From Candidatus Aenigmatarchaeota archaeon (lineage in GTDB: Archaea; Aenigmatarchaeota; Aenigmatarchaeia; CG10238-14; SCSR01), in contig JACQIA010000002.1 of the NCBI GenBank assembly GCA_016198705.1, forward strand, positions 1,521 to 65,520: a DNA stretch of 64,000 nucleotides, given 5' to 3'. This document shows, piece after piece, positions 11,370-61,104 of this stretch (positions are counted from its first letter, which is position 1; every line of letters starts with the position of its first letter). The notes under the pieces are model-generated. The model did no database searches, was not told the DNA's origin, and was given only the letters and a program-made list of their open reading frames with translations. Made by a program: the position numbers and the translations under genes.

Positions 11370-11454
11370 TGTATAGATTACTTACACAGCTTTATTGAAT
11401 TTCTGATGATTTAAAGATTTAAATAGTTAATAACCGTAATTTTTGGTGATATAA

Positions 11455-30733: not shown

Positions 30734-30801
30734 AATGAATCTTAATTTCCCGCCAATATAATCCTTTGCATTATATAATATCTGGTGTGTAAATTTAATT
30801 T

Positions 30802-31194: not shown

Positions 31195-31198
31195 ATGG

Positions 31199-33474: not shown

Positions 33475-33483
33475 GTAATTATC

Positions 33484-34200
33484 TTGAAAAAGAAGTTAAA
33501 AGCCAAAAAATCCCGCACGATTAAAGTAAAGGGAAAATCGCCAAAAACTAGGCATAGAAAAGTGAAATACAGGCGAAAGCAGCTAAAAATCATTAACATA
33601 ATGACTAAAAAAATTATAGTAGGAAACGACACGTCCAATCTTGCTGAGGTTGCACAAATTTTTATCGACAAGCACATATCTCATTTGCCAATAATGAAAG
33701 AAAATAAATTGGCAGGAATCATTAGTGTAGCAGATGTGCTTAAAGCCGCAAATGTTGCTGATTTATCAGAATTAGATGAGAATAAAATCAAACAATTGTC
33801 TGCAGTGAATACTTCAGATGTGATGAAAAAGCCCATCTGTGTTTACATCAACGCGCCGTTAATTAGAGCAAGGAAACTGATGAAAAAATACAATATAGGC
33901 AGCATACCAGTTCTAGATAAGGAGAAAAATTTGGTAGGGATAATCACAAAAACAGATTTGGTGCGAACCCTTTCCAAAATATTTATCGGTCGGCATATCC
34001 AAACCACTGTTGACGAACTGCTTAAAACTTTGGAAACTTTTGGTTCTATGCCTATAGACAAACTTGCTAGCATGCTTGGTGTAAAACCTGATTTGATAGA
34101 AGGATGGGGGAAAATTTTGGAAGAGCATAATATGGTAACAGTTGTTTACCCGACTTTTGGGAAACCTTACTTAAAAATAAATAAGAAGGAGCCGTCCTGA
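33484..34200 (+). CDS. CBS-pair protein with C-terminal winged-helix-like module shared with the next gene
   Basis: Two CBS motifs (HLPIMKENKLAGIISVADV; GSIPVLDKEKNLVGIITKTDL). The C-terminus LASMLGVKPDLIEGWGKILEEHNMV parallels the MinD-like gene's C-terminus. The true start may be the Met at about 33601. Confidence 0.55.
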   Translation: MKKKLKAKKSRTIKVKGKSPKTRHRKVKYRRKQLKIINIMTKKIIVGNDTSNLAEVAQIFIDKHISHLPIMKENKLAGIISVADVLKAANVADLSELDENKIKQLSAVNTSDVMKKPICVYINAPLIRARKLMKKYNIGSIPVLDKEKNLVGIITKTDLVRTLSKIFIGRHIQTTVDELLKTLETFGSMPIDKLASMLGVKPDLIEGWGKILEEHNMVTVVYPTFGKPYLKINKKEPS

Positions 34201-35207
34201 TGGCTAGATTTATCGGTGTGGTTTCAGGCAAGGGTGGTGTGGGCAAGACGACTGTCGTCTCCAATTTATCTTATGCCTTAAACGAGCTAGGACAAAGAGT
34301 CATAGCCGTTGACTGCAATGTCACCACGCCCCATCTTTCCAATTATATGCCAAACTTCAGCTGGCGTACCACTCTGAATGATGTGATGAAAAAGAAAGCC
34401 GATATCTTTTCAGCTCTGCATTACGCCAATGGCGTTTATGTCGTTCCAGCTTCTTTGAATTTAGCCGACTTGGTCGATGTTGATATAACCACTCTGCGAG
34501 AAACAGTGCAACCATTAGCAAATATAAACAGTTTAGTGCTCTTAGACTCGGCACCAGGCTTGGGTAAAGAGGCGCTATCAGTTTTGCATAGTTGCGAAGA
34601 AATTCTATTCGTTACAATACCACAAAAATCAGCGGTAAATGATATTTTACGTTGTGCGGAAGTTGCAGAAGAGATTGGTCTGAAGCGTCTGGGATTAGTT
34701 CTAAATATGTACAGAAAGAAAAAATACAATCTAGCACAGGAGGAGATTGAGGAAATTACAGGATTGAAGGTAATAGGAAATATATCCTTCGATGAAAAAG
34801 TCATCCAAGCTATTTCATCGAGATCACCGCTTGTAAAATCTTGGCCTGAGTCTAAGGTAAGTCAAGAATTCATGAAATTAGCAGCCAACCTAATAAACAT
34901 ACCATACAAAAGACAAGGGAAAATAAGTCGGATGATAAATAGATTGTTTCGACGAAATCAAGAATTAACAAGCCGCAATTACCCCATCCTGCATACTACA
35001 AACAAAGATTTAACAACAGCTGGCGATAAAATTCTTGATTTGCTTGCAGCCAATAAGAAAATGAAAATAAGTGAAGTCGCAGAAAAAGTTAACTTAAGTG
35101 AAGAAGAAATTTATAAATGGGGGAAAATTTTGGAGGAACAAAGGCTACTAAGTATGCAGCCATCAATTTTCGGAATTAAAAAATCTAAGTTGGTTTGGAA
35201 TGATTGA
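34200..35207 (+). CDS. MinD/ParA-family ATPase (CpaE/TadZ-like position in a pilus locus) with C-terminal wHTH-like module
   Basis: Deviant Walker A GKGGVGKTT; C-terminus ISEVAEKVNLSEEEIYKWGKILEEQRLL. Confidence 0.7.
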   Translation: MARFIGVVSGKGGVGKTTVVSNLSYALNELGQRVIAVDCNVTTPHLSNYMPNFSWRTTLNDVMKKKADIFSALHYANGVYVVPASLNLADLVDVDITTLRETVQPLANINSLVLLDSAPGLGKEALSVLHSCEEILFVTIPQKSAVNDILRCAEVAEEIGLKRLGLVLNMYRKKKYNLAQEEIEEITGLKVIGNISFDEKVIQAISSRSPLVKSWPESKVSQEFMKLAANLINIPYKRQGKISRMINRLFRRNQELTSRNYPILHTTNKDLTTAGDKILDLLAANKKMKISEVAEKVNLSEEEIYKWGKILEEQRLLSMQPSIFGIKKSKLVWND

Positions 35208-36726
35208 AAAAATATTGGCAAAATACACAATTGTTGTCGATAATGTAGCAGGCAGTATAGAGATAACAAAAAAAGGCGATGAACTTGTTCCTGTATATGA
35301 GCTTAAACTGCCCACCTTGGAAAAAGGCACTTTAGCACTTTTGGATAAGGTTAGAGAAATCTTGGTTGCGCATATACCTATAAAGGCTACTGAATTGCTC
35401 GATATAGCAACAGCAGAAAGCGTCAAAGAAAAAATTTACGCCAATGGACTTGAAATAATAAAGTCAGAACTGCCGACAGTAGACGAACAGATACAGAAGT
35501 ATCTAATAGGTTTGCTTATTCATGAAATGCTCGGTTTGGGGAAGTTGGAGATTCCATTAGGCGATGGCGAATTGGAGGAAATAGTAATCAACAGTGCAAA
35601 GGAACCGATTTGGGTATATCACAAAAAATTTGGCTGGCTTAAAACAAACATAGTAATTTCTTCTGAGGCAGAGATTGTAAATTACGCTGTAGCCATTGGT
35701 AGAAAAGTAGGTAGGCAGATCACAGTTCTAAATCCTTTGATGGATGCGCATCTTACCACTGGAGACAGGGTTAATGCAACTTTATTCCCAGTTTCTACTA
35801 GAGGAAATACACTAACCATAAGAAAATTTCGTCGTTCACCATGGACAATCACTGATTTTATAGAAAACAAGACTATTACTCCAGATGTAGCAGCTTTGCT
35901 TTGGCTTAGTATGCAGTATGAGATGAACATGATTGTCGCAGGTGGTACTGCCTCTGGCAAGACAAGCTTTCTAAATGTACTAACGCCGTTCATACCCCCT
36001 AACCACAGGATAATTACTATAGAAGATACACGCGAATTAACATTGCCTTCATTCTTACATTGGATACCGCTTACCACAAGAGAGCCGAACCCCGAAGGCA
36101 AAGGAGAGGTGACGATGTTGGATTTGCTAGTGAACAGTTTGCGCATGAGGCCGGATAGAATAATTTTGGGTGAAATAAGGAGATCAAGAGAAGCTGAAGT
36201 ATTATTTGAAGCAATGCACACCGGTCATTCAGTCTATGCTACCATCCATGCATATACAGCCGACCAGACTTACCGTAGGCTAGTTAACCCTCCTATAAAC
36301 GTGCCAGAAACCATGCTGGAGGCTTTGCATCTCATAACTGTCTGTTTCCGTGATAGAAGGCTGGGCATAAGAAGAGTTTTCCAGGTTGCTGAATTAGTCC
36401 CATCCGGAAGAGGTACTGGCGTATCAATGAATGTAATTTTCAGATGGAAGGCTGACAAGGATATTATCGAACAGCATGCCGAAAGTTACCGGTTGTTCGA
36501 AGAATTGCATATGCATACAGGCATGACTAATGCAGAAATTACCGATGACTTGAAGGACAAGGTCAAAATACTTGAGTGGCTGGTTAAAAATAAAGTGAAT
36601 ACAGTCGATTCAATAGGTAGAATAGTATCACAATATTATTCCGAGCCAGAAATTATTTTGGAATTGGTAAACAAGAAGAAAAAGCCTGGGCTTGGAGGAA
36701 AAAGCGCTAAAGGAATAGAAGCATGA
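35200..36726 (+). CDS. Type IV pilus assembly ATPase (TadA/FlaI/VirB11 family)
   Basis: Walker A GGTASGKTSFLN, TIEDTRE, Walker B/His box; 508 aa. Confidence 0.8.
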   Translation: MIEKILAKYTIVVDNVAGSIEITKKGDELVPVYELKLPTLEKGTLALLDKVREILVAHIPIKATELLDIATAESVKEKIYANGLEIIKSELPTVDEQIQKYLIGLLIHEMLGLGKLEIPLGDGELEEIVINSAKEPIWVYHKKFGWLKTNIVISSEAEIVNYAVAIGRKVGRQITVLNPLMDAHLTTGDRVNATLFPVSTRGNTLTIRKFRRSPWTITDFIENKTITPDVAALLWLSMQYEMNMIVAGGTASGKTSFLNVLTPFIPPNHRIITIEDTRELTLPSFLHWIPLTTREPNPEGKGEVTMLDLLVNSLRMRPDRIILGEIRRSREAEVLFEAMHTGHSVYATIHAYTADQTYRRLVNPPINVPETMLEALHLITVCFRDRRLGIRRVFQVAELVPSGRGTGVSMNVIFRWKADKDIIEQHAESYRLFEELHMHTGMTNAEITDDLKDKVKILEWLVKNKVNTVDSIGRIVSQYYSEPEIILELVNKKKKPGLGGKSAKGIEA

Positions 36727-37604
36727 TACCTTTTGTACCATTGCCTTTGGATAAAGCTGTAAAAGTTTCCCGTCCATTTATAGGTTTGTCAAATAAACTG
36801 CATGTTTTATTTCCCTATCTAGATACAAAACTTTCTCAGGCCAATATACCTGTAAAGGGTAAGGAATATCTTTCTGTGATTATTTTTTCAACATTCTTTT
36901 GGTTTGCTTTAACCGCAGGACTTCTGCTGACGTTGGGTCTATTTCTGAAAAATTTACCCCCCAACTTTACTGCCATAGCCCTTTTGGGGTCATCTGCAAT
37001 TTCTTTTATAGCATTCTTTTACATCAATTTTTATCCAAATGCTATAGTCATCCAGAAAACTAAGGATATAGACAAAAATTTACTTTTTGCACTGAGGCAT
37101 CTACTGATTCAAGTTAAGTCTGGAGTCCCTCTTTTTGAGTCTCTAGTATCTGTAGCCAAGGGAAATTACGGCTTGATTTCTGTCGAGTTTACCAAATCAA
37201 CAAAGAACATCGCCACTGGCATGTCCCAATCTGTGGCATTGGAAGAAATTGCCTATAAAAATCCTAGTCTCTACTTCCGTAGAACAATATGGCAATTAGT
37301 AAATTCTCTTAAAGCGGGGGCAGATATAGGAAACACACTAGAAGTTCTGGTGCAAAGCTTATCAAACGAGCAGAGGGTAGCTATTAGAAAGTACGGCTCT
37401 CAGTTGGGTCCTTTGGCATTGATGTACATGATGGTTGCTGTCATTATGCCGGCATTGGGTATTACATTTTTAATAATTTTTTCTTCTATATCTAGCCTAC
37501 AGGTTTCCGAAATAGTTTTCTATATGATTCTTGGATTTTTGGTTATTTTTCAACTCGCCTACTCGGGACTGATTAAAAACAATCGACCATCGGTGGAATT
37601 ATGA
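36723..37604 (+). CDS. TadB/TadC-like pilus platform membrane protein (first half)
   Basis: Polytopic membrane protein in the FlaJ/TadC position, overlapping the ATPase by 4 nt. Confidence 0.55.
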   Translation: MIPFVPLPLDKAVKVSRPFIGLSNKLHVLFPYLDTKLSQANIPVKGKEYLSVIIFSTFFWFALTAGLLLTLGLFLKNLPPNFTAIALLGSSAISFIAFFYINFYPNAIVIQKTKDIDKNLLFALRHLLIQVKSGVPLFESLVSVAKGNYGLISVEFTKSTKNIATGMSQSVALEEIAYKNPSLYFRRTIWQLVNSLKAGADIGNTLEVLVQSLSNEQRVAIRKYGSQLGPLALMYMMVAVIMPALGITFLIIFSSISSLQVSEIVFYMILGFLVIFQLAYSGLIKNNRPSVEL

Positions 37605-38581
37605 GAATATCATTTAGAATAGTAAGCCAATTGGCCCCTCAAAGCTACAAGAAATGGGTAGAAGAAAATTTGCGATATGCAGGCTTTTCTATAAGCCCTT
37701 GGAAATTCGTAGGTCTGATGGTTTTATACGGTTTCTCAGTAGCTCTGGCATTGGCAACGATTTTGTATGTTTTTGACTACCATTTAATATGGGTTCTTGC
37801 AGGATGGATAGCAGGTTTTATATCAATTTTCGCCATTTTTAACAGTATCCTTATCATAGTCGTCGACAATCGTGCTAGATTTGTAGAAGATATGTTGCCA
37901 GATGTGTTGCAACTTATGGCTGCCAACATGCGTTCTGGCTTTGCACCTGAACGTGCCTTGCTTTTATCGGCACGGCCAGAATTCGGTTTCCTGGAGACAG
38001 AAATCAAGAATGCATCAAAAGAATTATTTTCCGGCGCAAATATAGAAGATGCTTTGGGAGGAATTGCACGCAAAATTAATTCCAAGATACTGTCCACTAC
38101 AGTAAAACTTATTGTCGAAGGCATCAAAAAAGGAGGGGAACTTACTAAATTGCTGGAGCAAACTGCAGAAGATGTGAGAAATACAAGGATACTTAAAAAA
38201 GAAATCACAGCGCAAGTAACAGTATACGCCATTTTCATCTTTTTTGCCACTTCAATAGGTGCGCCATTTCTATATGGCATTTCCACTTTTTTGGCAGAAA
38301 CTATGGCTCATATAGGTAAGCAGATAGACATCGGAGACGCAGCATTGCCACAAACATCATTTATAAGTTTGAATAAGGTAAGCATAGACCCAGTCTTTCT
38401 AAGCAACTATTCATTGGCCGCGCTTGCAATAACGTCGATATTCGGAGGGATAATCATTGGTTTAATTCTAGAAGGTTCTGAAAAGGTTGGGATAAAGTAT
38501 ATCCCCGTTATGCTAGTGATAAGCATGCTGATATTCTTTGCAGCCAGATCAGTAATATCCCAAGTTATTATCATCTTTTAA
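37601..38581 (+). CDS. TadC/FlaJ-like pilus platform membrane protein (second half)
   Basis: Polytopic; together with the preceding gene it resembles a FlaJ split into two genes, as in bacterial TadB and TadC. Confidence 0.55.
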   Translation: MRISFRIVSQLAPQSYKKWVEENLRYAGFSISPWKFVGLMVLYGFSVALALATILYVFDYHLIWVLAGWIAGFISIFAIFNSILIIVVDNRARFVEDMLPDVLQLMAANMRSGFAPERALLLSARPEFGFLETEIKNASKELFSGANIEDALGGIARKINSKILSTTVKLIVEGIKKGGELTKLLEQTAEDVRNTRILKKEITAQVTVYAIFIFFATSIGAPFLYGISTFLAETMAHIGKQIDIGDAALPQTSFISLNKVSIDPVFLSNYSLAALAITSIFGGIIIGLILEGSEKVGIKYIPVMLVISMLIFFAARSVISQVIIIF

Positions 38582-38614
38582 TAGGAAAGCTTTTTAAAGT
38601 GGAAATTAAATATA

Positions 38615-39025
38615 ATGAATAGGAGAAATTTAATGAAGATGAAAAAAGCACAATCGGCAATGGAATACCTGATGACTTACGGCTGGGCTATATTGATAGT
38701 CATCGTGGTAGTTGCAGCTTTGTATGCTTTAGGTGTTTTCCAAGTTGGTGGGCAAGGAGTGACATGCAGTCCATGTTTCAGCAATTTTGCTTACGTTGAC
38801 TATTCTGCAGGGACTCTGTTGATTCGTAACGGTCCTCAGGACATTAGCAGCGTATCAGTTGCATCTGTCCCTGTTGGGGCAACAACAGCAGCAACATCAG
38901 CGACACCTGGTCAAGATATAACAATCACAGCTGTACCAACAACTGGAAATCCTGTGGTAACTGTTACTTATACAGTAACTGCCTCAGGTTTATCGCATAC
39001 AGACACAGCAACAATGCATAACTAG
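38615..39025 (+). CDS. Major type IV pilin candidate (archaeal DUF361-type class III signal)
   Basis: KKAQSAMEYLMTYGWAILIVIVVVAAL is the classic QxxxEYLxxYGWAI archaeal pilin motif. The mature part is Thr/Val/Ala-rich, and a strong hairpin follows the gene. Confidence 0.75.
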   Translation: MNRRNLMKMKKAQSAMEYLMTYGWAILIVIVVVAALYALGVFQVGGQGVTCSPCFSNFAYVDYSAGTLLIRNGPQDISSVSVASVPVGATTAATSATPGQDITITAVPTTGNPVVTVTYTVTASGLSHTDTATMHN

Positions 39026-45890: not shown

Positions 45891-47540
45891 TTAATTTATC
45901 CTCAATACAGCTGTATTGCATGTGCTAGTTGTGCACATCTTTAAAGTATGAGTGCCTTTTGATAATTGATTGTATATCTTCATTGTTGCTATTTCGCCTG
46001 GGTTTATTTGGGAGCCTGTGTCGTAATTGGCTTTAATTTCTTGTGCTGTCAGCGCCCGATTGTAAATCCTCACTTCATCTAGTTGTCCATTAAATTTGTT
46101 GAAGCCCGCAGTAACCGACCCCATAGCAAGAGGAACCCCTACATCGGACTGACCAACTCCTGTTGGAGTGAGTACCTCATCGAGGGGGAGCACTACTCCG
46201 TTCTTATAGAGTATGGGATCATTACCAACCGAATCTTGGTTATAAACTACGGTATAGAATGCTGGCGTACCAACCTCAACCGGTTGATTAACTGTTATCC
46301 ATTGACCGGTTCCTGTAGTGAAGAGTTTGACAAGGGCTAGATCCCTAGCAGTACCCGCGAAAGCAGATGAAAAATAGATTCTCCATCCTACACCATCATC
46401 CTTTCCAAGGATATCCATGTTATTGGCTGGCGGTGCAGTAGCAGATGCCCAAAATTCTACTGTTCCTCCTCCAACGAAAATATTTTGGATACTAGAATGA
46501 TCCGTGACAGAAACTATATCATTCACTCCGTCAAAAGCTTTAGCAGCCCCGTATTTCCCCTTTACAATATTATGCCTATCATTAGCGTCATTATTAAAAT
46601 TATACCACGCTACACTTCTGCTAACAGGATATGTATAATTCATATCTTCTTGGATTTCTGATTGTGACAATGCTCTGTTGTAAATGCGCACTTCGTCGAT
46701 GGTGCCGTTAAAATAGCTGCCTGCGTTTCCACCGTCATCCCTTTTTCCTATGGTAGCTGTTGTGGCTATTGTATTGATGGCTACGCTGAAAGTTCCGCTC
46801 GCGGCTGAAACGCCATTCAGATAATAGTTCCAAGCGCTTCCCGAAAGGGTGAATGCGACGTGATTCCAACTGCCGTTAGTTGGAAGCTGTGAGCCAGAAA
46901 TAATTATGTTGTTTGCGCCATTTATTCCGTCAGTAAAGACATAAATATTTCCCCCCACAGTAGCGAATTGAAATATGAAGCTTTGAGCAGCGGCGGCAAC
47001 GTTATTGAGGGCGAACACTGTTCCACCGGGATTCAATTTGTTGGGCATAATCCACGCCTCGATAGTCCTGCTGGAAGCGCCTATCGGAAGGTCAGTTATG
47101 CTGCTTACGTTGACATAATCATCCACACCGTCAAACTGCAATGCATTCCCATACTGCCCGCTAGCAAATCCAGCCCCATTTATCGTCCCGTCATTAAAAG
47201 TCTCCCCATTGAATGTTCCTGTGTTTCCTTTACCAGAAGAATCTGTAGCAGTTATCCTATCCAATTCATCCATCTTCCAATACCCAACCGAAGAATTATC
47301 CTGCTTAGACATACGATAAACAGCATCACTCCCGTCTATCTTCACACTTCTAAAAGCAGTTATCGGCGCAGTCCCGTCATTGCTTATGGTAACAGTATCG
47401 CTGAACGCATCAACCACATAAAACACTTCAGCAGTCTTTGTAGTAAACACACCAGAAATATAAGTATAGCTGAATCCAAACAAGCCAATTGTGATTATCA
47501 GCACTAGTAAAGTAGCTATAATTGAGGAAATGCCTTTCAT
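45891..47540 (-). CDS. Pilin-signal surface protein with two LamG/ConA-like lectin domains (putative adhesin)
   Basis: N-terminus MKGISSIIATLLVLIITIGLFGFSY is a class III signal. The two LamG signatures are GNALQFDGVDDYVNV...IEAWI...NHVAFT...GTIDEVRIYNRALSQSEI and later GQLDEVRIYNRALTAQEI. Confidence 0.7.
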   Translation of the reverse strand: MKGISSIIATLLVLIITIGLFGFSYTYISGVFTTKTAEVFYVVDAFSDTVTISNDGTAPITAFRSVKIDGSDAVYRMSKQDNSSVGYWKMDELDRITATDSSGKGNTGTFNGETFNDGTINGAGFASGQYGNALQFDGVDDYVNVSSITDLPIGASSRTIEAWIMPNKLNPGGTVFALNNVAAAAQSFIFQFATVGGNIYVFTDGINGANNIIISGSQLPTNGSWNHVAFTLSGSAWNYYLNGVSAASGTFSVAINTIATTATIGKRDDGGNAGSYFNGTIDEVRIYNRALSQSEIQEDMNYTYPVSRSVAWYNFNNDANDRHNIVKGKYGAAKAFDGVNDIVSVTDHSSIQNIFVGGGTVEFWASATAPPANNMDILGKDDGVGWRIYFSSAFAGTARDLALVKLFTTGTGQWITVNQPVEVGTPAFYTVVYNQDSVGNDPILYKNGVVLPLDEVLTPTGVGQSDVGVPLAMGSVTAGFNKFNGQLDEVRIYNRALTAQEIKANYDTGSQINPGEIATMKIYNQLSKGTHTLKMCTTSTCNTAVLRIN

Positions 47541-52601: not shown

Positions 52602-53192
52602 ATGGCAGCTTTTAAATTTGTAATTTCCGAACCTTCTACTAAAAAATCATTCCAGAAGGAAGTAGACCAGGCCAAAGCTATTTCTTTGGTCAACAAAAAA
52701 ATCGGTGACGAATTCCCAGGCGATATCCTCGATTTACACGGTTATAGTTTACAGATTACTGGCGGGACTGATAAAGATGGATTTCCAATGCACCCGTCAG
52801 TCAAAGGCTCTGTCAAGAAAAGGGTTTTGCTTAATAGCCCCCCTGGGTTTCATCCAAAAATAAAGGGGCAGAGAAAAAGAAAGACCGTGCGAGGCGATTC
52901 TGTATCCACAGACATAACACAGATAAATGTCAAAGTGACCAAAAAAGGAGAAAAATCTTTGGAAGAGTTAGTGCCGATGAAACTTAAAGAGAAGAAGGAT
53001 GAGACAAAGCAGGAGAAACTTGCAGAGAAAAAAGAAGAAAAGCATGCTGAAGCTAAAAAAGAGCCTGAGGCAAAGCCTGCAACCAAGAGTGAAGCCAAAG
53101 AAGAAAAACCTGCCGAACAGAAAGAAGCGAAAGAAGTTGCAGAAAAACCAAAAGAGCAGAAAATTGAACAGCCGAAAGAGGCTAAAGCTTAA
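52602..53192 (+). CDS. rps6e: Ribosomal protein S6e with Lys/Glu-rich C-terminal extension
   Basis: MAAFKFVISEPSTKKSFQKEV compares with the S6e N-terminus; the low-complexity tail is KEEKHAEAKKEPEAKPATKSEAKEEKP. Confidence 0.8.
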   Translation: MAAFKFVISEPSTKKSFQKEVDQAKAISLVNKKIGDEFPGDILDLHGYSLQITGGTDKDGFPMHPSVKGSVKKRVLLNSPPGFHPKIKGQRKRKTVRGDSVSTDITQINVKVTKKGEKSLEELVPMKLKEKKDETKQEKLAEKKEEKHAEAKKEPEAKPATKSEAKEEKPAEQKEAKEVAEKPKEQKIEQPKEAKA

Positions 53193-53227: not shown

Positions 53228-54436
53228 GTGGACAAATTAAAAGAAATCAATCCAAAAATGGTACCAGAATGTAACATAGGTACTTTGGGACATGTAAGCC
53301 ATGGTAAAACAAGCTTAGTTGCGGCACTTACTGGTAAAATAACATTAACCCATTCAGAAGAATTGAAGCGTGGAATAACCATTCGCCTAGGTTATGCTGA
53401 TGCAACCATCTACCGATGTATAAAATGCAATAGGTATTCTACTACTAACAAATGCCCTTATTGTTTTTCTGATTCTGAAATAATTAGGACGATAAGTTTC
53501 GTAGATGCACCAGGGCATGAGACATTGATGGCAACAGTGCTGACAGGAGCAAGTTTGATGGATGGTGTATTATTCGTAATTGCAGCCAACGAAAAATGTC
53601 CCCAACTGCAGACAAAAGAGCATTTAGCTGTTTTAGAAATAGCAGAAATCAAAAATGCTATAATTATACAAAATAAGATTGATACGGTTTCAGAAGAAAG
53701 GGCTTTGAAAAGCTACGAAGAAATAAAAGATTTTGTAAGAGGAAGTATATTGGAAGAAGCGCCAATTATTCCTGTATCCGCCCAATACAAAACAAACATA
53801 GATGTGGTTTTGGAAGCAATGGAAAAATTTATTCCCACTCCCAATAGAGGAGAATCAAACGAGCCTAAAATGCTTGTTGCTAGAAGTTTTGACATAAACA
53901 AGCCAGGGGCAAAACCTGAAAAATTGGTCGGTGGAATACTTGGAGGGGCAATATTATCTAGTAAGTTTTCTGTAGGCGAAAAAGTAGAAATAAGACCGGG
54001 TGTGAAGATCGGGAATAAGTATCAACCGTTATTTGCAAAGATAGTTGGTTTGAAGAAGGCTGGAATAAATCTTGATGTTGCTGGCGCAGGTGGTCTTTTG
54101 GGCTTGATGACGACATTAGACCCGTCTTTAACAAAATCTGATTCTTTAGTTGGCAATGTCGTGGGTTTGCCAAATAAGATGCCAGAATCAAAAGAAACCA
54201 TCTCGCTTAAAATAACCTTTCTAAATAGGGCTGATGCGTCGAATGTTAAGGTAAATGAAATAATTTTAATTAATGTGGGGACTGCAAGGTCGGTTGGAAC
54301 TGTATCCAGTGTTAAGAAAGAAACTATAGAAATGAAGTTGAAAATACCGGTTTGCGTGGAAGAAAAAGAAAAGGTAGCAATATCCAGGCAGATAGATGGA
54401 AGATGGAGACTAGTAGGTTATGCTATTACAGCTTAA
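53228..54436 (+). CDS. eif2g: Translation initiation factor aIF-2 gamma
   Basis: GHVSHGKTSLVAALTG G1 motif and a Zn-knuckle (CIKCNRYSTTNKCPYC); 402 aa. Confidence 0.85.
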   Translation: MDKLKEINPKMVPECNIGTLGHVSHGKTSLVAALTGKITLTHSEELKRGITIRLGYADATIYRCIKCNRYSTTNKCPYCFSDSEIIRTISFVDAPGHETLMATVLTGASLMDGVLFVIAANEKCPQLQTKEHLAVLEIAEIKNAIIIQNKIDTVSEERALKSYEEIKDFVRGSILEEAPIIPVSAQYKTNIDVVLEAMEKFIPTPNRGESNEPKMLVARSFDINKPGAKPEKLVGGILGGAILSSKFSVGEKVEIRPGVKIGNKYQPLFAKIVGLKKAGINLDVAGAGGLLGLMTTLDPSLTKSDSLVGNVVGLPNKMPESKETISLKITFLNRADASNVKVNEIILINVGTARSVGTVSSVKKETIEMKLKIPVCVEEKEKVAISRQIDGRWRLVGYAITA

Positions 54437-54891
54437 GCAGCAACACCAGCAGTAGAACAAAATGCACTTCCAGTCACTGGTGAAGCCCCAGTTGCAGATG
54501 CTCTTAATCTATAGGTTCCAATTGTAGCAGCGTTTGGTCTATCTAAACCAACTGTAGTATCGGTATCAGCATCGTCAGGACAAGCTCCTGAAGTCCCAGG
54601 AGCTATGCTAGTTATGGAACAACTTCCTGCAGCAACACCAGCAGAATCTGTGGCACTTACTGTGACAGTACCACTTGGAGATGTACCTTCATTCCTAACA
54701 GTAATATCTATATCATCTCCAGCACACGTTGCATCAAGAATATCTAAAACCACACCAGTTCTCGAACTTACAACACCGCTAAGATAAGTATAAGCAAAAC
54801 CAGCCAAAGCTATAGTTATCACAAGCATCAAAAGAGTCGCTATTACGGTTGATATACCTTTTTTCATATTATCACTTTTTAAGTACTGCAA
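54433..54891 (-). CDS. Secreted pilin-like protein (archaeal class III signal, Gly/Ala/Thr/Ser-rich)
   Basis: KKGISTVIATLLMLVITIALAGFAYTY; the mature part is GATS-rich with Cys pairs. Confidence 0.6.
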   Translation of the reverse strand: MQYLKSDNMKKGISTVIATLLMLVITIALAGFAYTYLSGVVSSRTGVVLDILDATCAGDDIDITVRNEGTSPSGTVTVSATDSAGVAAGSCSITSIAPGTSGACPDDADTDTTVGLDRPNAATIGTYRLRASATGASPVTGSAFCSTAGVAA

Positions 54892-54894
54892 TCT

Positions 54895-55299
54895 TTATAC
54901 GCCTGCAGTCGAGCAAAATACTGTTCCACTAGCTGGCGCTGCTCCAGCTGCACTTACGCTTAATGAGTTAGTTCCTGTCCCTCCAATGGCTCGATTGGCC
55001 GTGCATTCACCAGAAAGTCCGGGATTTACAGATGCAATTGTACAAGAACCGGCAGCAGTAGTTCCATCAGGCTGTGTAGCCGATACAGTTATATCTCCAC
55101 TAGGTGCAGTTCCTTCATTCCTGACACCAACAGTTATTGAATCACCAACACAGCTTGATTTAATAAGACCCAAAACTACACCAGTTCTGGCAGTTGTAGT
55201 TCCTGTAATGTATGTATAAGCAAAACCTACCAATGCTATAGTTATCACAAGCATCAAAAGAGTCGCTATTACTGTAGAAACACCCTTTTTCATAAGCAT
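54895..55299 (-). CDS. Secreted pilin-like protein, tandem paralogue of the previous gene
   Basis: MKKGVSTVIATLLMLVITIALVGFAYTY; the signal peptide is near-identical to the neighbouring gene's. Confidence 0.6.
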   Translation of the reverse strand: MLMKKGVSTVIATLLMLVITIALVGFAYTYITGTTTARTGVVLGLIKSSCVGDSITVGVRNEGTAPSGDITVSATQPDGTTAAGSCTIASVNPGLSGECTANRAIGGTGTNSLSVSAAGAAPASGTVFCSTAGV

Positions 55300-55398
55300 C
55301 TTTAAAAATATTATATGTTCCCCTTTATAAATGTTTATCTATTCGCTTTATAAGTGCTCCAGTCACATTCAATTAAACATAGCAATAAATAATAACTT

Positions 55399-55761
55399 AT
55401 GAAAATTTTGCTGGACACCAATTTCATTATGGACTTATGCAAGTTTCGAATAGACCTGGCAGATGTGCAGGATTTAGTTTCCGAGCCTGTAGAATTGTGT
55501 ATTTTGAACAAAACACTGAACGAGCTTGAATTTTTATCCAAAAAAGCGAAACATGGGAAATACGCAAAATTGTCATTGCTGTTAATTACAGCCAACAAGA
55601 TAAAGATTTTAGATGTTGTTGGTGATGTAGATAAAAATTTACTAGCATTAGCTGGCAACTTTCTAATTGCAACCAATGATGGAAAATTACGGCAAAAATT
55701 GAAGCAAAAAGGAATGAAAACTATATATTTAAGGGCAAGAAAACATTTAGCTATAGGTTGA
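55399..55761 (+). CDS. PIN-domain ribonuclease (Fcf1/Utp24-like)
   Basis: ILLDTNFIMDL ... LIATNDGKLRQKL acidic-residue pattern of Fcf1-type PIN; 120 aa; a conserved neighbour of eif2g and rpoE. Confidence 0.55.
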   Translation: MKILLDTNFIMDLCKFRIDLADVQDLVSEPVELCILNKTLNELEFLSKKAKHGKYAKLSLLLITANKIKILDVVGDVDKNLLALAGNFLIATNDGKLRQKLKQKGMKTIYLRARKHLAIG

Positions 55762-55767
55762 GGCTTA

Positions 55768-57720
55768 ATGTTAGAACTCGCAATTTTAGCTGGTCTGTTG
55801 GCGGTTTTCTTTTCTGTTGTATTGGCACAAGATATAATGAGGCAGGATGCTGGAACAGAAAAGATGAAAGAAATATCCAAGGCAATCCAACAAGGTTCTA
55901 ATGCATATTTGAAGAGGCAATACAAAACATTGATCCCTGTAGTGCTGATACTTTCTGCAGCGCTCTATTTCATAGGGGTTGAGGCTATGCTGTCTTTTAT
56001 TTTTGGTGTTATCATGTCTGCACTCGCTGGTTGGATGGGAATGAATATTTCTGTTAAAACCAATTCAAGAGTTGCTCATGCTGCAAGTAAAGGTTTGAAA
56101 GAAGCTTTATCGCTTGCGTTTAAAGGCGGTGCAGTAACAGGCATGATGGTTGTTGGACTGGGTTTGTTAGGCGTGAGTGCTTTATTTATTTTGTTTGGTA
56201 AACCTGAGCTTATAATCGGATTTGGGTTTGGCGCTAGTTTAATAAGCTTGTTCATGAGAGTTGGCGGTGGCATTTATACCAAGGCTGCAGATGTGGGTGC
56301 TGATTTGGTTGGTAAGGTTGAGAAGGGAATACCAGAAGACGATCCAAGAAACCCAGCTGTTATTGCTGATAATGTCGGGGATAATGTCGGGGATTGTGCA
56401 GGCATGGCTGCAGACGTGTTCGAGTCTTATGCGGTTGCGTTGATTGCTTCAATGCTTTTGGGTGTAGCCATAACTAACGGTGTAATCTTTCCTTTAGTCA
56501 TAGGTGCGACGGCAATTTTTGCATCAATCATAGGAACATTCTTCGTTAGACTTGGAAAAAATAACGACATATGGGCGGCCTTGAACAAAGGTTTGATAAG
56601 CACTACAATAATTTCCGCAATTTTATTCTACCTTACCACAGTATATTTCTTCAATAGCATAAATCTATTTTTCGCAGCATTAACAGGTTTGATAGCTACA
56701 GTGTTGATTAGCATGATCACTGAATACTACACTTCTAGAGAACGCAAGCCAGTAAGAGAAGTTGCAAAATCTGCTACAACAGGAGCAGCGACAAACATTA
56801 TATCAGGATTAGCTCTTGGACTCCAAAGTACAGCACCTTCCATCTTGGTCATTGTTGCAGCAATTTTGGCATCCTATTATTTCGGTGGTGTTTATGGCAT
56901 TGCTATAGCTGCTTTAGGCATGCTTTCAGTAACAGGTATGATTGTGGCTATTGATGCCTATGGACCGATAACGGATAATGCTGGAGGAATTGCAGAGATG
57001 TCTAAATTGCCAGTGAGAGTTAGAAAGATCACAGACGCACTGGACGCCGTAGGCAATACAACTAAAGCTGTGACCAAGGGATTCGCAATCGGCTCAGCCG
57101 CACTAGCCGCATTATCTTTATTCGCTGCATATTCAGAAGCTGTGAATTTACAAACAATCAACATTCTCTCTGACAAAGTCGTAGCAGGTTTATTCATCGG
57201 CGGCGCTATACCATTTCTATTTTCTTCATTTTTGATGAAAGCTGTTGGAAATGCGGCAATGCTTGTGGTCGAAGAAGTCAGAAGACAATTTAAAACTATA
57301 AAAGGATTGATGGAAGGTAAAGCCAAACCCGACTATGGAAAGGCTGTTGACATAAGTACTCAAGCGGCTTTACGGGAGTTGACACTGCCAGGTATGCTGG
57401 CAGTTTTATCGCCAATAGTTGTTGGATTTATTTTGGGTACAGAAGCATTAGGCGGGATGCTAGCTGGTAGTATAGTTACAGGATTGCTATTGGCATTAAC
57501 ATTCAGTAATGCAGGTGCTGCGTGGGATAATGCCAAAAAGTACATTGAAACAGGAGCATTTGGTGGCAAAGGTTCTGATGCACATAAAGCTGCTGTTGTA
57601 GGTGATACTGTAGGCGATCCAAGCAAGGACACCGCCGGTCCAAGTTTGAACCCATTGATAAAGGTTTTAAATACAATTTCACTAATTTTTGCTACACTCT
57701 TTGTTAGTTTTGCTATATAG
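55768..57720 (+). CDS. hppA: Membrane-bound proton-translocating inorganic pyrophosphatase
   Basis: [20 protein letters not shown] and [21 protein letters not shown] signature motifs; 650 aa, polytopic. Confidence 0.9.
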
Positions 57721-57722
57721 AG

Positions 57723-58274
57723 TTGAAAATTATGTATCGCATAACAACCGTATCAGACAGAATTAGAGTTCCGCCAGAGAAATTTACATCCAACCTCAAA
57801 GAATCTGTAAAGCAATCAATAAAGGAAAAACTGGTGGGTATCTTAGACCCAAGAGTAGGCATTATCCTTTCGGTAATCGATATAGAAAAAGTAGGCGAGG
57901 GTAAAATAATGGCTAATGATCCTGGTGTGTACTACATGGCAACTTTCAAACTATTGACATACAAGCCAGAACTGCACGAACTTGTGCATGGCGAGGTAGT
58001 TGATAATGCAGAATACGGTTCTTTTGTAAGAATCGGCCCTATGGACGGGTTAATACATATCTCCCAATTGATGGATGATTTTGTGAGCTATGACAATAAG
58101 AACTCTGTGTTTCTTGGAAAAGAAACAAAAAGAACTTTGAAAGAAGGGGATAAGGTAAAGGCGAGAATAATCTCCGTTTCATTCACCGAACAAAACAAAG
58201 TTGGTTTGACTATGCGCCAAACCGGGTTAGGCTCTGTCGCGTGGATAGAAGCTGAGAAAAAGAAAAAGAAGTGA
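57723..58274 (+). CDS. rpoE: RNA polymerase subunit E' (Rpo7)
   Basis: S1-domain protein of 183 aa immediately upstream of spt4. Confidence 0.75.
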   Translation: MKIMYRITTVSDRIRVPPEKFTSNLKESVKQSIKEKLVGILDPRVGIILSVIDIEKVGEGKIMANDPGVYYMATFKLLTYKPELHELVHGEVVDNAEYGSFVRIGPMDGLIHISQLMDDFVSYDNKNSVFLGKETKRTLKEGDKVKARIISVSFTEQNKVGLTMRQTGLGSVAWIEAEKKKKK

Positions 58275-58278
58275 TAGA

Positions 58279-58467
58279 ATGGCAAAGAAGAAACAGGTTT
58301 GCAGAAATTGCAGAAGATTCACAACAGAAAAAGTATGCCCAGTGTGCAAATCAACAAATTTGTCAACAAGCTGGAAAGGCTTAGCGATAGTCATTGATAC
58401 GAACTCTGAAATAGCAAAATTGCTGAATATCTTAGAGCCTGGTAGTTACGCATTATATGTTGGTTAA
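58279..58467 (+). CDS. spt4: Spt4 / RNA polymerase subunit E''
   Basis: Zn ribbon CRNCRRF...CPVCKS; 62 aa. Confidence 0.7.
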   Translation: MAKKKQVCRNCRRFTTEKVCPVCKSTNLSTSWKGLAIVIDTNSEIAKLLNILEPGSYALYVG

Positions 58468-58759
58468 TATGGAATTATCTATTGTGAAAGAGAAAGACAA
58501 TCCCTTTTTAAAAAGGAAAGAAATATCTTTGGTAATAAACCATCCTAAAGCGCCCACTCCGACAAAGGCAGAAATTATAAAGACTGTTGCAGGCAGCAAT
58601 TCTGTTGAAGAAAGCCAAGTAGTGATAGATTATATTTTTACCAAAAAAGGCATTTCTGAATCCTTGATAAAATTAAAGATATTGAAAGAAAAGCCAAGAA
58701 TTGAAATTAAAGCGAAAGAAGGTGAACATGTTGAAGCACAAACCAGTAAAGCAGCATGA
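58457..58759 (+). CDS. rps24e: Ribosomal protein S24e
   Basis: 100 aa; KDNPFLKRKEISLVINHPKAPTPTKAEI compares with the S24e core. Confidence 0.75.
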   Translation: MLVNMELSIVKEKDNPFLKRKEISLVINHPKAPTPTKAEIIKTVAGSNSVEESQVVIDYIFTKKGISESLIKLKILKEKPRIEIKAKEGEHVEAQTSKAA

Positions 58760-58901
58760 ATATTTCAAGGTTGACGGTAATTTAACAAGAGCTAATAAAA
58801 ATTGCCCTAGATGTAGCGACACTTTTCTTGCTCAGCATAAGCAGACCGATGGAAAAATAAGATTCTACTGCGGTAAATGCCATTTGAGCAGTTGGGAATG
58901 A
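58728..58901 (+). CDS. rps27ae: Ribosomal protein S27ae
   Basis: Zn ribbon CPRCSD...CGKCHL. ATG at 58728 is preferred over the TTG-initiated ORF start at 58701; it overlaps the 3' end of rps24e. Confidence 0.7.
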   Translation: MLKHKPVKQHEYFKVDGNLTRANKNCPRCSDTFLAQHKQTDGKIRFYCGKCHLSSWE

Positions 58902-58919
58902 ATAGTGAATAAAAGTTAT

Positions 58920-59165
58920 TTAGCTCATGATATCCGCAGTCACCAATTTATCTGTTGTGGTTATCTTAACTCTCACCTTGGTTGGCGGATTTTTAATCCC
59001 AAATTTCCATATAAATTCGTTTAAGCCTTTGCTGATTTTTACTTTCTCGGCTTTAGTTTTTTTCCTTAGAATTTCCTTTAAAATTTTAGTTGCAGCATCG
59101 CTTCTATCCCATTTAGGTGTTTTCACCAATTGCTTTCTCAAGTTTATAGTTAGAATAGTTTCCAT
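58920..59165 (-). CDS. rpl31e: Ribosomal protein L31e
   Basis: VKISKGLNEFIWKFGIKNPPTKVRVKI compares with L31e VKIDQSLNEAIWARGIRNPPRKVRV. Internal Met start (METILTINLRK) is preferred. Confidence 0.7.
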   Translation of the reverse strand: METILTINLRKQLVKTPKWDRSDAATKILKEILRKKTKAEKVKISKGLNEFIWKFGIKNPPTKVRVKITTTDKLVTADIMS

Positions 59166-59227
59166 GTCTTTAAGTTTATGCCCGGAGATATTTAAGCTAA
59201 ATCCCACAAACTTTATAAAGAGAGTAC

Positions 59228-59683
59228 ATGAAAGCTATCTCCCCATTAATAGCTGTAGTTTTGTTAGTAGGCTTTACAGTGGCTTTAGGCGGGATAGTAA
59301 TAACATGGCTATCCACCTTAGCATCAACACAGACAACTATAGTGAGCAGCGGAACTGAAAAGCAGGTGAAATGTGCAGCCTCATCGCTTGCTGTCATCGA
59401 AGTTCGATATCCCTCCGGCGCCGGGAATGGTTTTGTAAATGTGACAGTAAGATATGAGAGTGGTACAGAAATTTTATCTAACATTACAGCAGAAGTAGGT
59501 GCAAGGGGTTCACTTCAAGCCAATACTTCTACAGGAACCGTCAGTCCCGGAGAAACTAGAGTTATCCAAGTTTCGCCAGCCAATTACCCTCCCGAGTTAG
59601 TTTCTGCAAGAGGATTCTGTCAAAGCTCGGTTTCAGTGATTGGTGAATGTAAGTCAGGCCAGCCCTGCATGAAAGGCAGTTAA
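59228..59683 (+). CDS. Secreted pilin-like protein (class III signal), 151 aa
   Basis: MKAISPLIAVVLLVGFTVALGGIVITWL; C-terminal Cys pair. Confidence 0.55.
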   Translation: MKAISPLIAVVLLVGFTVALGGIVITWLSTLASTQTTIVSSGTEKQVKCAASSLAVIEVRYPSGAGNGFVNVTVRYESGTEILSNITAEVGARGSLQANTSTGTVSPGETRVIQVSPANYPPELVSARGFCQSSVSVIGECKSGQPCMKGS

Positions 59684-59726
59684 GCCAATCGCTTAGTTTA
59701 TTTATTAAAAATACAAATGAATAATT

Positions 59727-60182
59727 ATGAAAGGACTTTCTCCAATAGTAGCAGTAGTGCTTTTAATAGGGTTTACTGTGTCAATAGCTGGTATAGTATC
59801 TGTTTGGATAACTTCGACTACTAGAACACAAACAGAAATTATTGGCGAACAAGCTAGTTTACAGGCACAGTGTGTTGGTTCGACATTGGTTGTAAAGGAG
59901 GTTAGACGCAGTTCTGGACAGGTGAATATTACGTATGCATTGGAAACCGGTACTGAAGGTTTAACCAATATAAGTATAGAGGCAATTGCTCTGGGTAATA
60001 CAACAAGAGCGGGACCATTTTACGTAAACACAACAATAAAACCAGGTGAAGGGAATGCTTCTACACTTAACATACAGCCAGTTGGCCCGCTGGATTTAGT
60101 TAGAGTATTTGGGCTTTGCCAAAATAAATATCCTATTTCAACAGAATGCAAATCTGGCAAGCCATGCATGGTTTCAAACTAG
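59727..60182 (+). CDS. Secreted pilin-like protein, tandem paralogue, 151 aa
   Basis: MKGLSPIVAVVLLIGFTVSIAGIVSVWI; the C-terminus ECKSGKPCM parallels the neighbour's ECKSGQPCM. Confidence 0.55.
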   Translation: MKGLSPIVAVVLLIGFTVSIAGIVSVWITSTTRTQTEIIGEQASLQAQCVGSTLVVKEVRRSSGQVNITYALETGTEGLTNISIEAIALGNTTRAGPFYVNTTIKPGEGNASTLNIQPVGPLDLVRVFGLCQNKYPISTECKSGKPCMVSN

Positions 60183-60346
60183 ATCCTTAACCTGATTCTT
60201 CTCCATCTCTTAACTTTGTCAACAGTTAGTCTTCTGCTTCTCGCTCTCTTCAAACCGAATTTTCTTATATCCGCCCATCTCGGAGCAGTTCTAATTTTAC
60301 CTATCTTCGACAATTTTATCTTTTTTGTAAGAAATTTTATGGACAT
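60179..60346 (-). CDS. rpl39e: Small basic ribosomal protein, L39e-like (55 aa)
   Basis: Own translation MSIKFLTKKIKLSKIGKIRTAPRWADIRKFGLKRARSRRLTVDKVKRWRRIRLRI, with KRWRRIRL compared to the L39e RRHWRRTKL end. Its ATG overlaps the rrp42 stop (TGATG). L39e-L31e adjacency is conserved in archaea. Confidence 0.45.
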   Translation of the reverse strand: MSIKFLTKKIKLSKIGKIRTAPRWADIRKFGLKRARSRRLTVDKVKRWRRIRLRI

Positions 60347-61104
60347 CAAACCAGTTTCCTCAATTCTTTACTTTTTTCAATAGCAGTATCCAACATTCTC
60401 TCAATATCTTCAAATTTAATTTCATTTACGCCCTGTTTTTGCAAAGCACATATCTTATCGTCGTCTCTAACTGATATGCTGAGTTTTGAATCCAAAATTT
60501 TCTCCTCGTCATAGTTTGGATCCAATATAAAATTATCTCCCACTTTGGAAACTGTTATATTTATTGGAGTAAATGCAACAGGCAATGGTTTGTCATATTC
60601 ACCTCTAACTATTTTATCGTTTTCCAATTTTGGCAATCTTGCATTTCGAAGTGCAGCTATGCTTGCTAAGGATGCAGCATCCTGTAAATTTCCATGATGG
60701 TTGATTATATGTATATCTACAAAAGTAGAGAACACATTCTCTCCCTCCACCAGGCATAATTTATCAAGTTCTATAGCATCCGATTCTCTAATGCCCCTAT
60801 CAACTATTCTCGACAATTCTACAGCATTCTCACTAGGGGGACCCGCTTCAAATTCCGGCGACGCCATCGGAGTAAATTCTGTATTCACTATAAGTATGCC
60901 TCTATCTGGTGTGTCTGGAAATGGCTTTCCTGTACCAATTTTCACGCCAGCTATGACTTCCGTCTCACCAAATTTTACTTTTGCAGAACCTTCTGCAGTA
61001 CTAATGATATTTGTAGAAATTTCTATAGCTCTGAATTCATCAAACTTCCTTCCGTCTATTCTCTTGCCTTTATGTATGAGTTCTAGTGCGTACAGTTCTT
61101 CCAT
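60346..61104 (-). CDS. rrp42: Exosome subunit Rrp42 (RNase PH-like, non-catalytic)
   Basis: RIDGRKFDEFRAIEI N-terminus with RNase PH fold; third gene of the rrp4-rrp41-rrp42 order. Confidence 0.8.
   Translation of the reverse strand: MEELYALELIHKGKRIDGRKFDEFRAIEISTNIISTAEGSAKVKFGETEVIAGVKIGTGKPFPDTPDRGILIVNTEFTPMASPEFEAGPPSENAVELSRIVDRGIRESDAIELDKLCLVEGENVFSTFVDIHIINHHGNLQDAASLASIAALRNARLPKLENDKIVRGEYDKPLPVAFTPINITVSKVGDNFILDPNYDEEKILDSKLSISVRDDDKICALQKQGVNEIKFEDIERMLDTAIEKSKELRKLV

Follow-up and report, generated by a model that had tools for sequence, protein, structure and literature searches.

Stand-alone type IV pilin genes at a conserved position in a translation and transcription gene cluster of Aenigmatarchaeota

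Pilin genes of two families in the window

The window analyzed here is a stretch of 64,000 nucleotides (nt) from contig JACQIA010000002.1 (positions 1,521 to 65,520 of the forward strand) of GenBank assembly GCA_016198705.1. This assembly is a metagenome-assembled genome (MAG) from groundwater that represents Aenigmatarchaeota (Aenigmarchaeota), an uncultured phylum of the DPANN group. The window encodes four small pilin-like proteins in two tandem gene pairs. Pair 1 (pil1b and pil1a) is found at site 1, between the genes for aIF2gamma and a PIN-domain protein, and pair 2 (pil2a and pil2b) is found at site 2, between the gene for ribosomal protein L31e and a basic 56-amino-acid (aa) open reading frame (ORF). 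A preliminary description of this DNA had listed these four ORFs, together with a 650-aa H+-translocating pyrophosphatase (H+-PPase) between the PIN gene and rpoE', and had suspected an archaeon of a symbiotic type. All four ORFs and the H+-PPase are indeed found at these places, and the source falls in DPANN. The region has the following layout (a slash marks the predicted cleavage site; scores are those of Pfam or NCBIfam models).

52602-53192, plus strand: S6e (Pfam scan of the window ORFs)
53228-54436, plus strand: aIF2gamma, 402-aa ORF (Pfam GTP_EFTU and eIF2_C)
54433-54891, minus strand: pil1b, site-1 pilin-like gene, likely start ATG 54867, 144 aa (TIGR02537, 34.8 bits)
54895-55299, minus strand: pil1a, site-1 pilin-like gene, likely start ATG 55293 (MKKG/VSTVIATLL...), 132 aa (TIGR02537, 33.5 bits)
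55300-55398, intergenic: AT-rich divergent stretch of 99 nt between pil1a and the PIN gene, with two TTTATAA[A/G] TATA-like boxes
55399-55761, plus strand: PIN_9 (Fcf1-like) PIN-domain gene, divergent from pil1a (Pfam PIN_9, 37.1 bits; cutoff, 26.3)
55768-57720, plus strand: membrane H+-PPase, 650 aa (Pfam H_PPase, PF03030, 918 bits, profile positions 1-645)
57723-58901, plus strand: RpoE', Spt4, S24e, S27ae (Pfam scan)
58920-59207, minus strand: L31e, divergent from pil2a (Pfam Ribosomal_L31e, 45.9 bits)
59228-59683, plus strand: pil2a, site-2 pilin-like gene (MKA/ISPLIAVVLL...; TIGR02537, 27.3 bits)
59727-60182, plus strand: pil2b, site-2 pilin-like gene (TIGR02537, 31.7 bits)
60179-60349, minus strand: 56-aa basic ORF, "L39e-like" by position, convergent neighbor of pil2b
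Beyond the 56-aa ORF, minus strand: Rrp42, Rrp41, Rrp4, SBDS, and PsmA (proteasome alpha) (Pfam scan)

The stop codons of pil1b and aIF2gamma overlap by 4 nt, as do those of pil2b and the 56-aa ORF. The members of pair 1, which had been called convergent, are arranged in tandem on the minus strand, and it is the pair as a whole that converges on the aIF2gamma gene. The gap between pil1a and the PIN gene is presumed, from the archaeal TATA spacing, to be a bidirectional promoter region. The aIF2gamma ORF is 100% identical, over 98% of the query, to a 392-aa NCBI Aenigmarchaeota record, and the pil1a product is identical to NCBI protein HY361_00340.

All four proteins score above the curated cutoff (20 bits) of TIGR02537, the NCBIfam model for the N-terminal domain of archaellins and type IV pilins. 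Their N termini, MKKG/ISTVIATLLMLVITIALAG in pil1b, MKKG/VSTV... in pil1a, MKA/ISPLIAVVLLVGF in pil2a, and MKG/LSPIVAVVLLIGF in pil2b, have the arrangement of a class III signal, i.e., a short charged leader that ends in K/R-G/A/S and stands immediately before a hydrophobic segment of approximately 20 residues. These are textbook signals; at greater length, that of pil2a reads MKA/ISPLIAVVLLVGFTVALGG. The leader motif is kept in 64 site-1 and 23 site-2 homologues.

AlphaFold2 (AF2) models of pil1a (pLDDT, 81.7) and pil2b (pLDDT, 77.6), built on shallow alignments, combine a long helix at the N terminus with a downstream β-sandwich of 7 or 8 strands; in pil1a, the helix spans residues 3 to 34 and is followed by 7 strands. 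In Foldseek searches of the PDB, the top match of both models is 8fk7_A (E values of 1.5e-5 for pil1a and 3e-4 for pil2b), the subunit of the "flagellar-like" type IV pilus of Pyrobaculum calidifontis. This structure matches both models over the whole chain, helix plus sandwich, and is of similar size (136 to 144 residues), but the sequence identity is only 15 to 22%, and P. calidifontis is a crenarchaeal hyperthermophile. Profiles of both families show weak but consistent matches to the solved archaeal pilins Iho670, 8fk7, 9myg, and Natrinema PilA2, with E values of 6e-4 and 2.5e-3 for 8fk7.

Each of the four pilins contains four Cys residues at conserved positions. Pair 2 also carries N-X-S/T sequons, 3 in pil2a and 5 in pil2b, compared with 0.23 per 100 residues in the neighboring cytoplasmic proteins, and a CKSGKPCM motif is found at the C terminus of pil2b. 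The conserved cysteines and the 3 to 5 sequons of pair 2 fit an extracellular protein. The mature parts are rich in Gly, Ala, Thr, and Ser, which make up 52 to 54% of the residues in pair 1 and 36 to 42% in pair 2, as against 25% in the neighboring cytoplasmic proteins.

By the N-terminal domain and the predicted fold, the four ORFs are real genes of the archaeal type IV pilin family and represent two families. Their first description as pilin-like surface proteins is supported, and the conserved Cys and the Gly/Ala/Thr/Ser-rich mature parts that it named are found; a β-sandwich is predicted in both AF2 models. They share with the PilA-type (TIGR02537) pilins, such as PilA of Haloferax and Natrinema, UpsA and Aap of Sulfolobus, and Iho670 of Ignicoccus, the K/R-G/A leader, the hydrophobic N-terminal helix, the small β-sandwich head, and the location in stand-alone or tandem genes outside the machinery. 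In contrast to those pilins, the window proteins are only weakly similar to them beyond the N-terminal helix, score below the cutoff of the Pfam Pilin_N model, and have mature-domain motifs of their own: a Cys pair with RNxG (family 1) and a C-terminal C-x5-C-[MW] (family 2). The result extends a known kind of system, the archaeal type IV pilins, rather than establishing another.

Several other assignments were considered. Archaellins were rejected, as no match to Pfam Arch_flagellin is found at an E value of ≤0.01 and the proteins comprise 132 to 151 aa versus the typical length of ~200 aa or more. Ups pilins were rejected as well: the scores with UpsA (NF046073) are 23 to 29.5 bits, far below its cutoff of 130, and that with UpsB (NF046074) is 15 bits, below its cutoff of 70. 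A CARDB (PF07705) match of pil1a (18.3 bits; E value, 0.0027) lies under the gathering cutoff of 22.7, and the resemblance is confined to the Ig-like fold and an N-x-G motif.

Position and copy number in related loci

Related loci (numbered with the prefix L where they were looked up) were obtained by three routes. Two were exact look-ups, one for homologues of the pilins and one for those of aIF2gamma with 61 to 73% identity to the window protein; the third was a metagenome scan with an alignment of the PIN protein, which yielded 80 loci. An ORF with a class III signal is found between the aIF2gamma and PIN genes, on the opposite strand, in each of the 47 metagenome loci in which both genes are present, in one copy in 41 loci, in two copies in 5, and in three copies in 1. 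It is also present in all eleven looked-up loci that span the site (L004, L009, L010, L015 to L020, L101, and L102). The aIF2gamma proteins of the looked-up loci are 58 to 85% identical to that of the window, and among the metagenome loci the identity goes down to about 50%. The 64 unique site-1 proteins form a single family, with the Cys pair and the RNxG motif of the mature domain each conserved in ~90% of them.

The packing of the site is equally regular. Across 57 loci, the median spacing between the stop codons of the pilin and aIF2gamma genes is 0 nt; the stops overlap in 28 loci and are at most 10 nt apart in 45. On the other side, only a short stretch, with a median of about 66 nt, separates the K/R-G/A cleavage motif of the pilin from the start of the PIN gene.

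Three outgroup MAGs, labeled Nitrososphaeraceae, Halobacteriales, and Parvarchaeota (L001 to L003), were the sole returns of a scan of genome contigs with aIF2gamma, and none of the three has a site-1 pilin. L002 and L003 show the order aIF2gamma-(PIN)-RpoE'-Spt4, with neither pilin nor PPase. Relative to other archaea, the pilin genes do interrupt the S6e-aIF2gamma-PIN-RpoE'-Spt4-S24e-S27ae and L39e-L31e clusters, as the preliminary description had stated. It had also allowed that finding the same gene order across the lineage would speak for an ancestral state, and this is what site 1 shows, in 47 of 47 loci. As every related locus that covers the site has the site-1 order, this order dates from the ancestor of the sampled lineage rather than from a recent insertion. 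The site-1 pilin arrangement is an old, conserved trait.

One pilin family at a fixed, recognizable position in every sampled genome suggests itself as the first candidate subunit of a surface filament, and the site-1 pilin can be used as a simple synteny marker of this uncultured lineage. A limited literature search found no description of a fixed pilin position in the aIF2gamma-PIN or L31e-L39e cluster. As a separate observation, the aIF2gamma-PIN slot of the Parvarchaeota-labeled L003 holds an opposite-strand ORF of 156 aa (11360-11830, minus strand), whose product is predicted to have multiple transmembrane segments and lacks a pilin signal.

Site 2 is far more variable. Its census includes 30 loci that span S27ae/S24e to the 56-aa ORF. 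The order eIF6-L31e-"L39e", unbroken in L015 and L019, is uninterrupted in 14 of these; L31e and the 56-aa ORF are separated by a pilin gene, eIF6 being retained, in 4; L31e is accompanied by one pilin in 8 and by two pilins in 1, the window itself; and two to four pilins are found with L31e not there in the remaining 3. Roughly half of the lineage has a site-2 pilin, with 1 to 4 copies. The closest relatives of the window (L004, L010, and L012/L013) carry four conserved paralogues, A to D, in a row. The two window genes correspond to two of these: pil2a is the orthologue of paralogue B (75 to 76% identity to copy B of L004 and L010 versus 42% to copy D), and pil2b is the orthologue of paralogue D (77 to 81% identity; its homologues overall, 67 to 81%). 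In L004, L010, and L012, L31e is missing at the place between S27ae and the pilins, and the four pilin paralogues are found there instead.

In a rough, midpoint-rooted neighbor-joining (NJ) tree of four short proteins, which serves here only to display the scatter of the site-2 and PPase states, the site-2 pilin turns up on several deep branches, and one large clade lacks it. Given this scatter across deep branches, the site-2 pilin is old and has a history of losses or repeated gains.

The 56-aa ORF that adjoins site 2 is very basic and 67 to 85% identical to its seven aligned relatives. The label "L39e-like" given to it earlier is not backed by any match in Pfam (E value of ≤1), NCBIfam (E value of ≤0.1), or the PDB (with the single sequence or a 7-sequence profile). 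The name is based on its position and on a likeness of motifs: its location near L31e and eIF6 in L015 and L019 and its K-K-x-K-L...P-x-W...W-R-R pattern suggest a divergent L39e. As for L31e, its listed GTG start at 59207 is probably wrong; the ATG at 59165, which gives a protein of 81 aa, fits the aligned homologues from L016 and L015.

The slot between PIN and rpoE', in which the preliminary description had placed an inserted H+-PPase, shows a pattern of its own. Among the 58 loci with both PIN and RpoE', it holds an H+-PPase in 12, a soluble family I PPase in 15, both in 2, and neither in 29; in one locus, a NUDIX hydrolase is found there. These states, too, are scattered over the NJ tree. 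The slot repeatedly hosts different pyrophosphate-hydrolyzing enzymes, and this looks like repeated replacement on the spot. Slot enzymes are seen at 55768-57720 in the window, 12003-12575 in L016, 12761-13291 in L020, 12096-14656 in L017, and 2261-2695 in L101. A Lys residue in the GNTT[K/A]A motif reportedly marks the K+-independent H+-PPases. The window enzyme has GNTTKA at residue 429 and, judged by this motif, is of the K+-independent type. ORFs similar to LAGLIDADG homing endonucleases also occur inside the conserved cluster, in L010 (15363-16313) and in L012 (717-1661), in the latter case between the H+-PPase and rpoE'.

Candidate assembly machinery and proposed function

A candidate for the machinery that would assemble such pilins is encoded in the same window, at 30035-39025.

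30035-30733, minus strand: KaiC/FlaH-like ATPase
30802-33474: five small ORFs, each hydrophobic near the N terminus, two beginning with MKGQ...
34200-38581, plus strand: ParA/MinD-like ATPase, T2SSE (PilB/FlaI-like) ATPase, and two T2SSF (PilC/TadB-C/FlaJ-like) proteins (Pfam)
38615-39025: 136-aa protein with a DUF361-type leader (KKAQ/SAMEYLMTYGWAIL) and a Thr/Ser/Ala-rich head, candidate major pilin of the machinery locus

The T2SSE and T2SSF genes lie within 35200-38581, and a CBS protein is also encoded in the locus. Judged by its gene content, 30035-39025 is a complete type IV filament locus with an Epd/Tad-like layout. It resembles the loci of the Methanococcus Epd pili and of bacterial Tad-like systems, which have EppA-processed pilins and an ATPase with a split TadB/TadC platform, in the combination of ParA-like and T2SSE ATPases, two T2SSF proteins, and KGQ/KAQ leaders, whereas the four pilins have leaders of another type (KG/IS and KA/IS) and are encoded 17 to 21 kb from it. 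In all, the MAG holds a T2SSE/T2SSF locus and at least six proteins with pilin signals.

Two large window proteins with N termini like those of pair 1 were also observed. One of 566 aa is encoded at 5168-6868 (minus strand) and one of 549 aa at 45891-47540 (minus strand), and their N termini read KA/ISSIIGTLLILIITIGL and KG/ISSIIATLLVLIITIGL, respectively. One of the two ends in a Peptidase_S74 intramolecular chaperone domain, and the other contains two Laminin_G_3/ConA-like lectin domains. They are probably pilin-fused adhesins.

The reading that we consider probable is that the window carries stand-alone pilin genes of two families, kept at an old and stable position, for structural subunits of an adhesive pilus. 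Family membership by the N-terminal domain, the predicted fold, purifying selection, and the conserved synteny are the observations on which it stands. In this scheme, a PibD-type prepilin peptidase, not seen among the larger ORFs of the window, would remove the 3- to 4-residue leader, which is positively charged and ends in K-G or K-A, at the membrane. The mature protein would comprise the hydrophobic helix and a small Ig-like β-sandwich that probably holds two disulfides and, in family 2, might also be glycosylated at its N-glycosylation sequons. Polymerization by a T2SSE ATPase and a T2SSF platform protein would give a surface filament that has the helices at its core and exposes the sandwiches. 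A machine of this kind is found 17 kb upstream and might be the one that serves the pilins.

Archaeal pilin genes located outside the machinery loci, as singletons or in tandem, typically encode major pilins (Makarova et al., 2016; PMC4858521), and on this ground the four genes probably encode major pilins for adhesion. A role in host contact, at the symbiotic interface, is plausible. Pilus-mediated host attachment in DPANN has so far been a proposal only. In the episymbiotic Saccharibacteria (candidate phyla radiation, CPR), type IV pilins are needed for host attachment (PMC9894109, PMC11623550); this is a like case of ultra-small, host-dependent cells but concerns a bacterial system with unrelated pilin heads. 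According to Li et al. (2021; PMC8407114), type IV pili in Aenigmarchaeota are confined to MAGs of thermal habitats. The pilin-bearing metagenome loci seen here include contigs from Hainich H51 groundwater, and this MAG has a T2SSE/T2SSF locus.

The gene order would go back to the ancestor of the Aenigmatarchaeota sampled here, in which a pilin gene became established antisense in the gap between aIF2gamma and PIN, stop-to-stop with aIF2gamma and with a short divergent promoter region in common with the PIN operon. It would have been kept since then, with occasional tandem duplication, and the PIN-rpoE' slot would have taken up a pyrophosphatase separately. The simplest account of the fixed position is a historical one, a single insertion into a stable cluster, with selection acting on the pilin itself. 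Comparative genomics has shown this archaeal cluster to be unusually stable. With such tight packing (overlapping stops and a joint promoter of ~100 nt), moving or removing the pilin gene might harm its essential neighbors.

Several points weigh against this reading. The scores of the four proteins with Pfam Pilin_N (PF07790), 17.5, 17.7, 17.9, and 20.6 bits, are under the gathering cutoff of 25.2; some homologues carry precomputed weak Pilin_N matches. The matches to characterized pilins are weak and mostly limited to the N-terminal part. The machinery locus has pilin-like genes of its own, with a different type of signal (KGQ/KAQ, EppA-like), so that this machine may not serve the four pilins. 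No A24-type prepilin peptidase is found among the larger window ORFs, searched with Pfam or inspected by eye. The choice of relatives followed from PIN and aIF2gamma similarity to the window, and few of them carry NCBI taxon names; a statement about all Aenigmatarchaeota is therefore an extrapolation. Finally, some of the loci come from the same or nearly identical contigs, e.g., L015 and L041.

It is also conceivable, if unlikely, that the four proteins carry class III signals but form no filaments, being instead membrane-anchored or pseudopilus-like surface proteins, such as S-layer-binding stator parts like FlaF and FlaG, components similar to those of the bindosome, or minor pilins at the start or tip of a filament made of another subunit. 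The soluble domains of FlaF are in the Foldseek top five of both models (ranks 5 and 2), and there are weak NCBIfam matches to the bindosome protein BasC in addition to those to UpsA and UpsB. The four distinct paralogues A to D that relatives keep in a row resemble a set of minor pilins, and the machinery locus offers a major pilin candidate of its own at 38615-39025. Against these stand the canonical K-G/A cleavage motif directly before the hydrophobic segment and the fact that the sole solved structure matching over the whole length is that of a filament-forming pilin. FlaF and FlaG are not known to be cleaved. A mature domain of ~100 residues and a stand-alone location also fit major pilins (PMC4858521).

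A different question is whether the antisense, stop-to-stop position is itself functional, in that convergent transcription of aIF2gamma and the pilin gene, and of L39e and pil2b, would yield RNAs with overlapping 3' ends or complete antisense transcripts and so couple pilus output, positively or negatively, to the expression of the translation and transcription machinery. In 45 of 57 loci, the genes are too tightly spaced for a terminator between them; in the window, the first oligo-T run past the aIF2gamma stop lies beyond all of pil1b, and that past the 56-aa ORF lies beyond all of pil2b. The position is kept in every sampled locus, including all 47 from metagenomes. The scarcity of oligo-T runs is not significant, however, with only about 1.4 and 1.8 runs expected by chance, and the conservation can be put down to the known stability of the cluster and to selection on the pilin. 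Tight packing would moreover be expected in the small genomes of DPANN archaea. This makes the coupling improbable. We give no better prospects to its strongest form, in which a pilin locked antisense inside the near-universal archaeal aIF2gamma-PIN-RpoE' cluster since the origin of Aenigmatarchaeota would be a synapomorphy of the phylum and a core gene of a reduced genome and would functionally couple a host-attachment pilus to the output of the cluster.

Rates, composition, and age of the pilin genes

The preliminary description took the pilin pairs and the H+-PPase for insertions and the pilins for recently duplicated, fast-evolving surface proteins. On this view, the insertions would be recent and possibly acquired. 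Some observations fit it: the cluster is interrupted relative to other archaea, L002 and L003 being without pilin or PPase; copy numbers vary among the relatives, from 1 to 3 at site 1 and from 0 to 4 at site 2; and pair 1 is a lineage-specific duplicate, as L004, L010, and L018 have a single copy. The rates, the composition, and the age of the duplications bear on it as follows.

Compared with their L004 orthologues (aIF2gamma, 80% identity), the proteins encoded by the neighboring genes are 68 to 91% identical, pil2b is 77%, pil2a is 75%, pil1a is 66%, and pil1b is 60% identical. The nonsynonymous and synonymous rates (dN and dS) and their ratio (omega) against orthologues fall in three groups.

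pil1: dN, 0.29-0.31; omega, about 0.18-0.23
pil2: dN, 0.15-0.16; omega, about 0.08-0.11
Neighboring genes: dN, 0.045-0.18; omega, 0.03-0.12

In these comparisons dS is >1, i.e., saturated, which makes the omega values rough, and the weight is placed on dN and amino acid identity. Fast evolution thus holds for pair 1, whose dN is about 2 to 3 times that of the neighbors, but not for pair 2, which evolves at the rate of PIN or S24e. All four pilin genes are under purifying selection (omega of 0.08 to 0.23 against orthologues).

The duplications are not recent. The pil1a and pil1b proteins are 62% identical, with a dS of 0.85 and an omega of 0.39, and between pil2a and pil2b dS is saturated, their products being orthologues of the distinct conserved paralogues B and D. 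The nearly identical signal peptides that had suggested otherwise are confined to pair 1, where the N-terminal signals are 81% identical over 32 residues; in pair 2 they are 55% identical. Similarity of pilin N termini is in any case the usual result of constraint on the core helix.

The GC content of the pilin genes, 0.40 to 0.45 versus a window mean of 0.378, is raised, although not to the extent implied by the earlier wording, "well above" the surroundings: that of the H+-PPase gene is 0.415, and S6e and PsmA are similar. The excess is found only in codon position 2 (0.47 to 0.61 versus about 0.32) and arises, in line with the cause named in the preliminary description, because the mature parts consist of 36 to 54% Gly, Ala, Thr, and Ser. 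At codon position 3, the GC content (GC3) of the pilins does not exceed that of the neighbors and is as low as 0.17 to 0.21 in pair 1. Horizontal acquisition from a GC-richer donor was rejected, as GC3 is not raised. The pilin genes are native, with no sign of foreign origin.

The native or lower GC3, the dS values, and the ordinary rate of pil2 all speak against recent insertion, as does the synteny of site 1, which persists in looked-up loci with as little as 58% aIF2gamma identity and in metagenome loci with about 50%. These results leave the insertion view with very little probability. That the ORFs are chance or antisense frames without a protein product, a view to which only the Pilin_N scores below the cutoff might lend support, can be dismissed in the face of their conservation with omega well under 1, the TIGR02537 scores, the confident AF2 folds, and dozens of diverged homologues at the same place.

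Two further features of the window concern other genes. S6e (52602-53192) has a C-terminal extension of ~70 residues with a high content of Lys, Glu, Ala, and Pro, which is shorter or absent in the relatives (S6e of 140 to 203 aa). At 1394-2764, the window encodes a D12-class N6-adenine DNA methyltransferase followed by a 152-aa ORF, and the two may form a restriction-modification pair.

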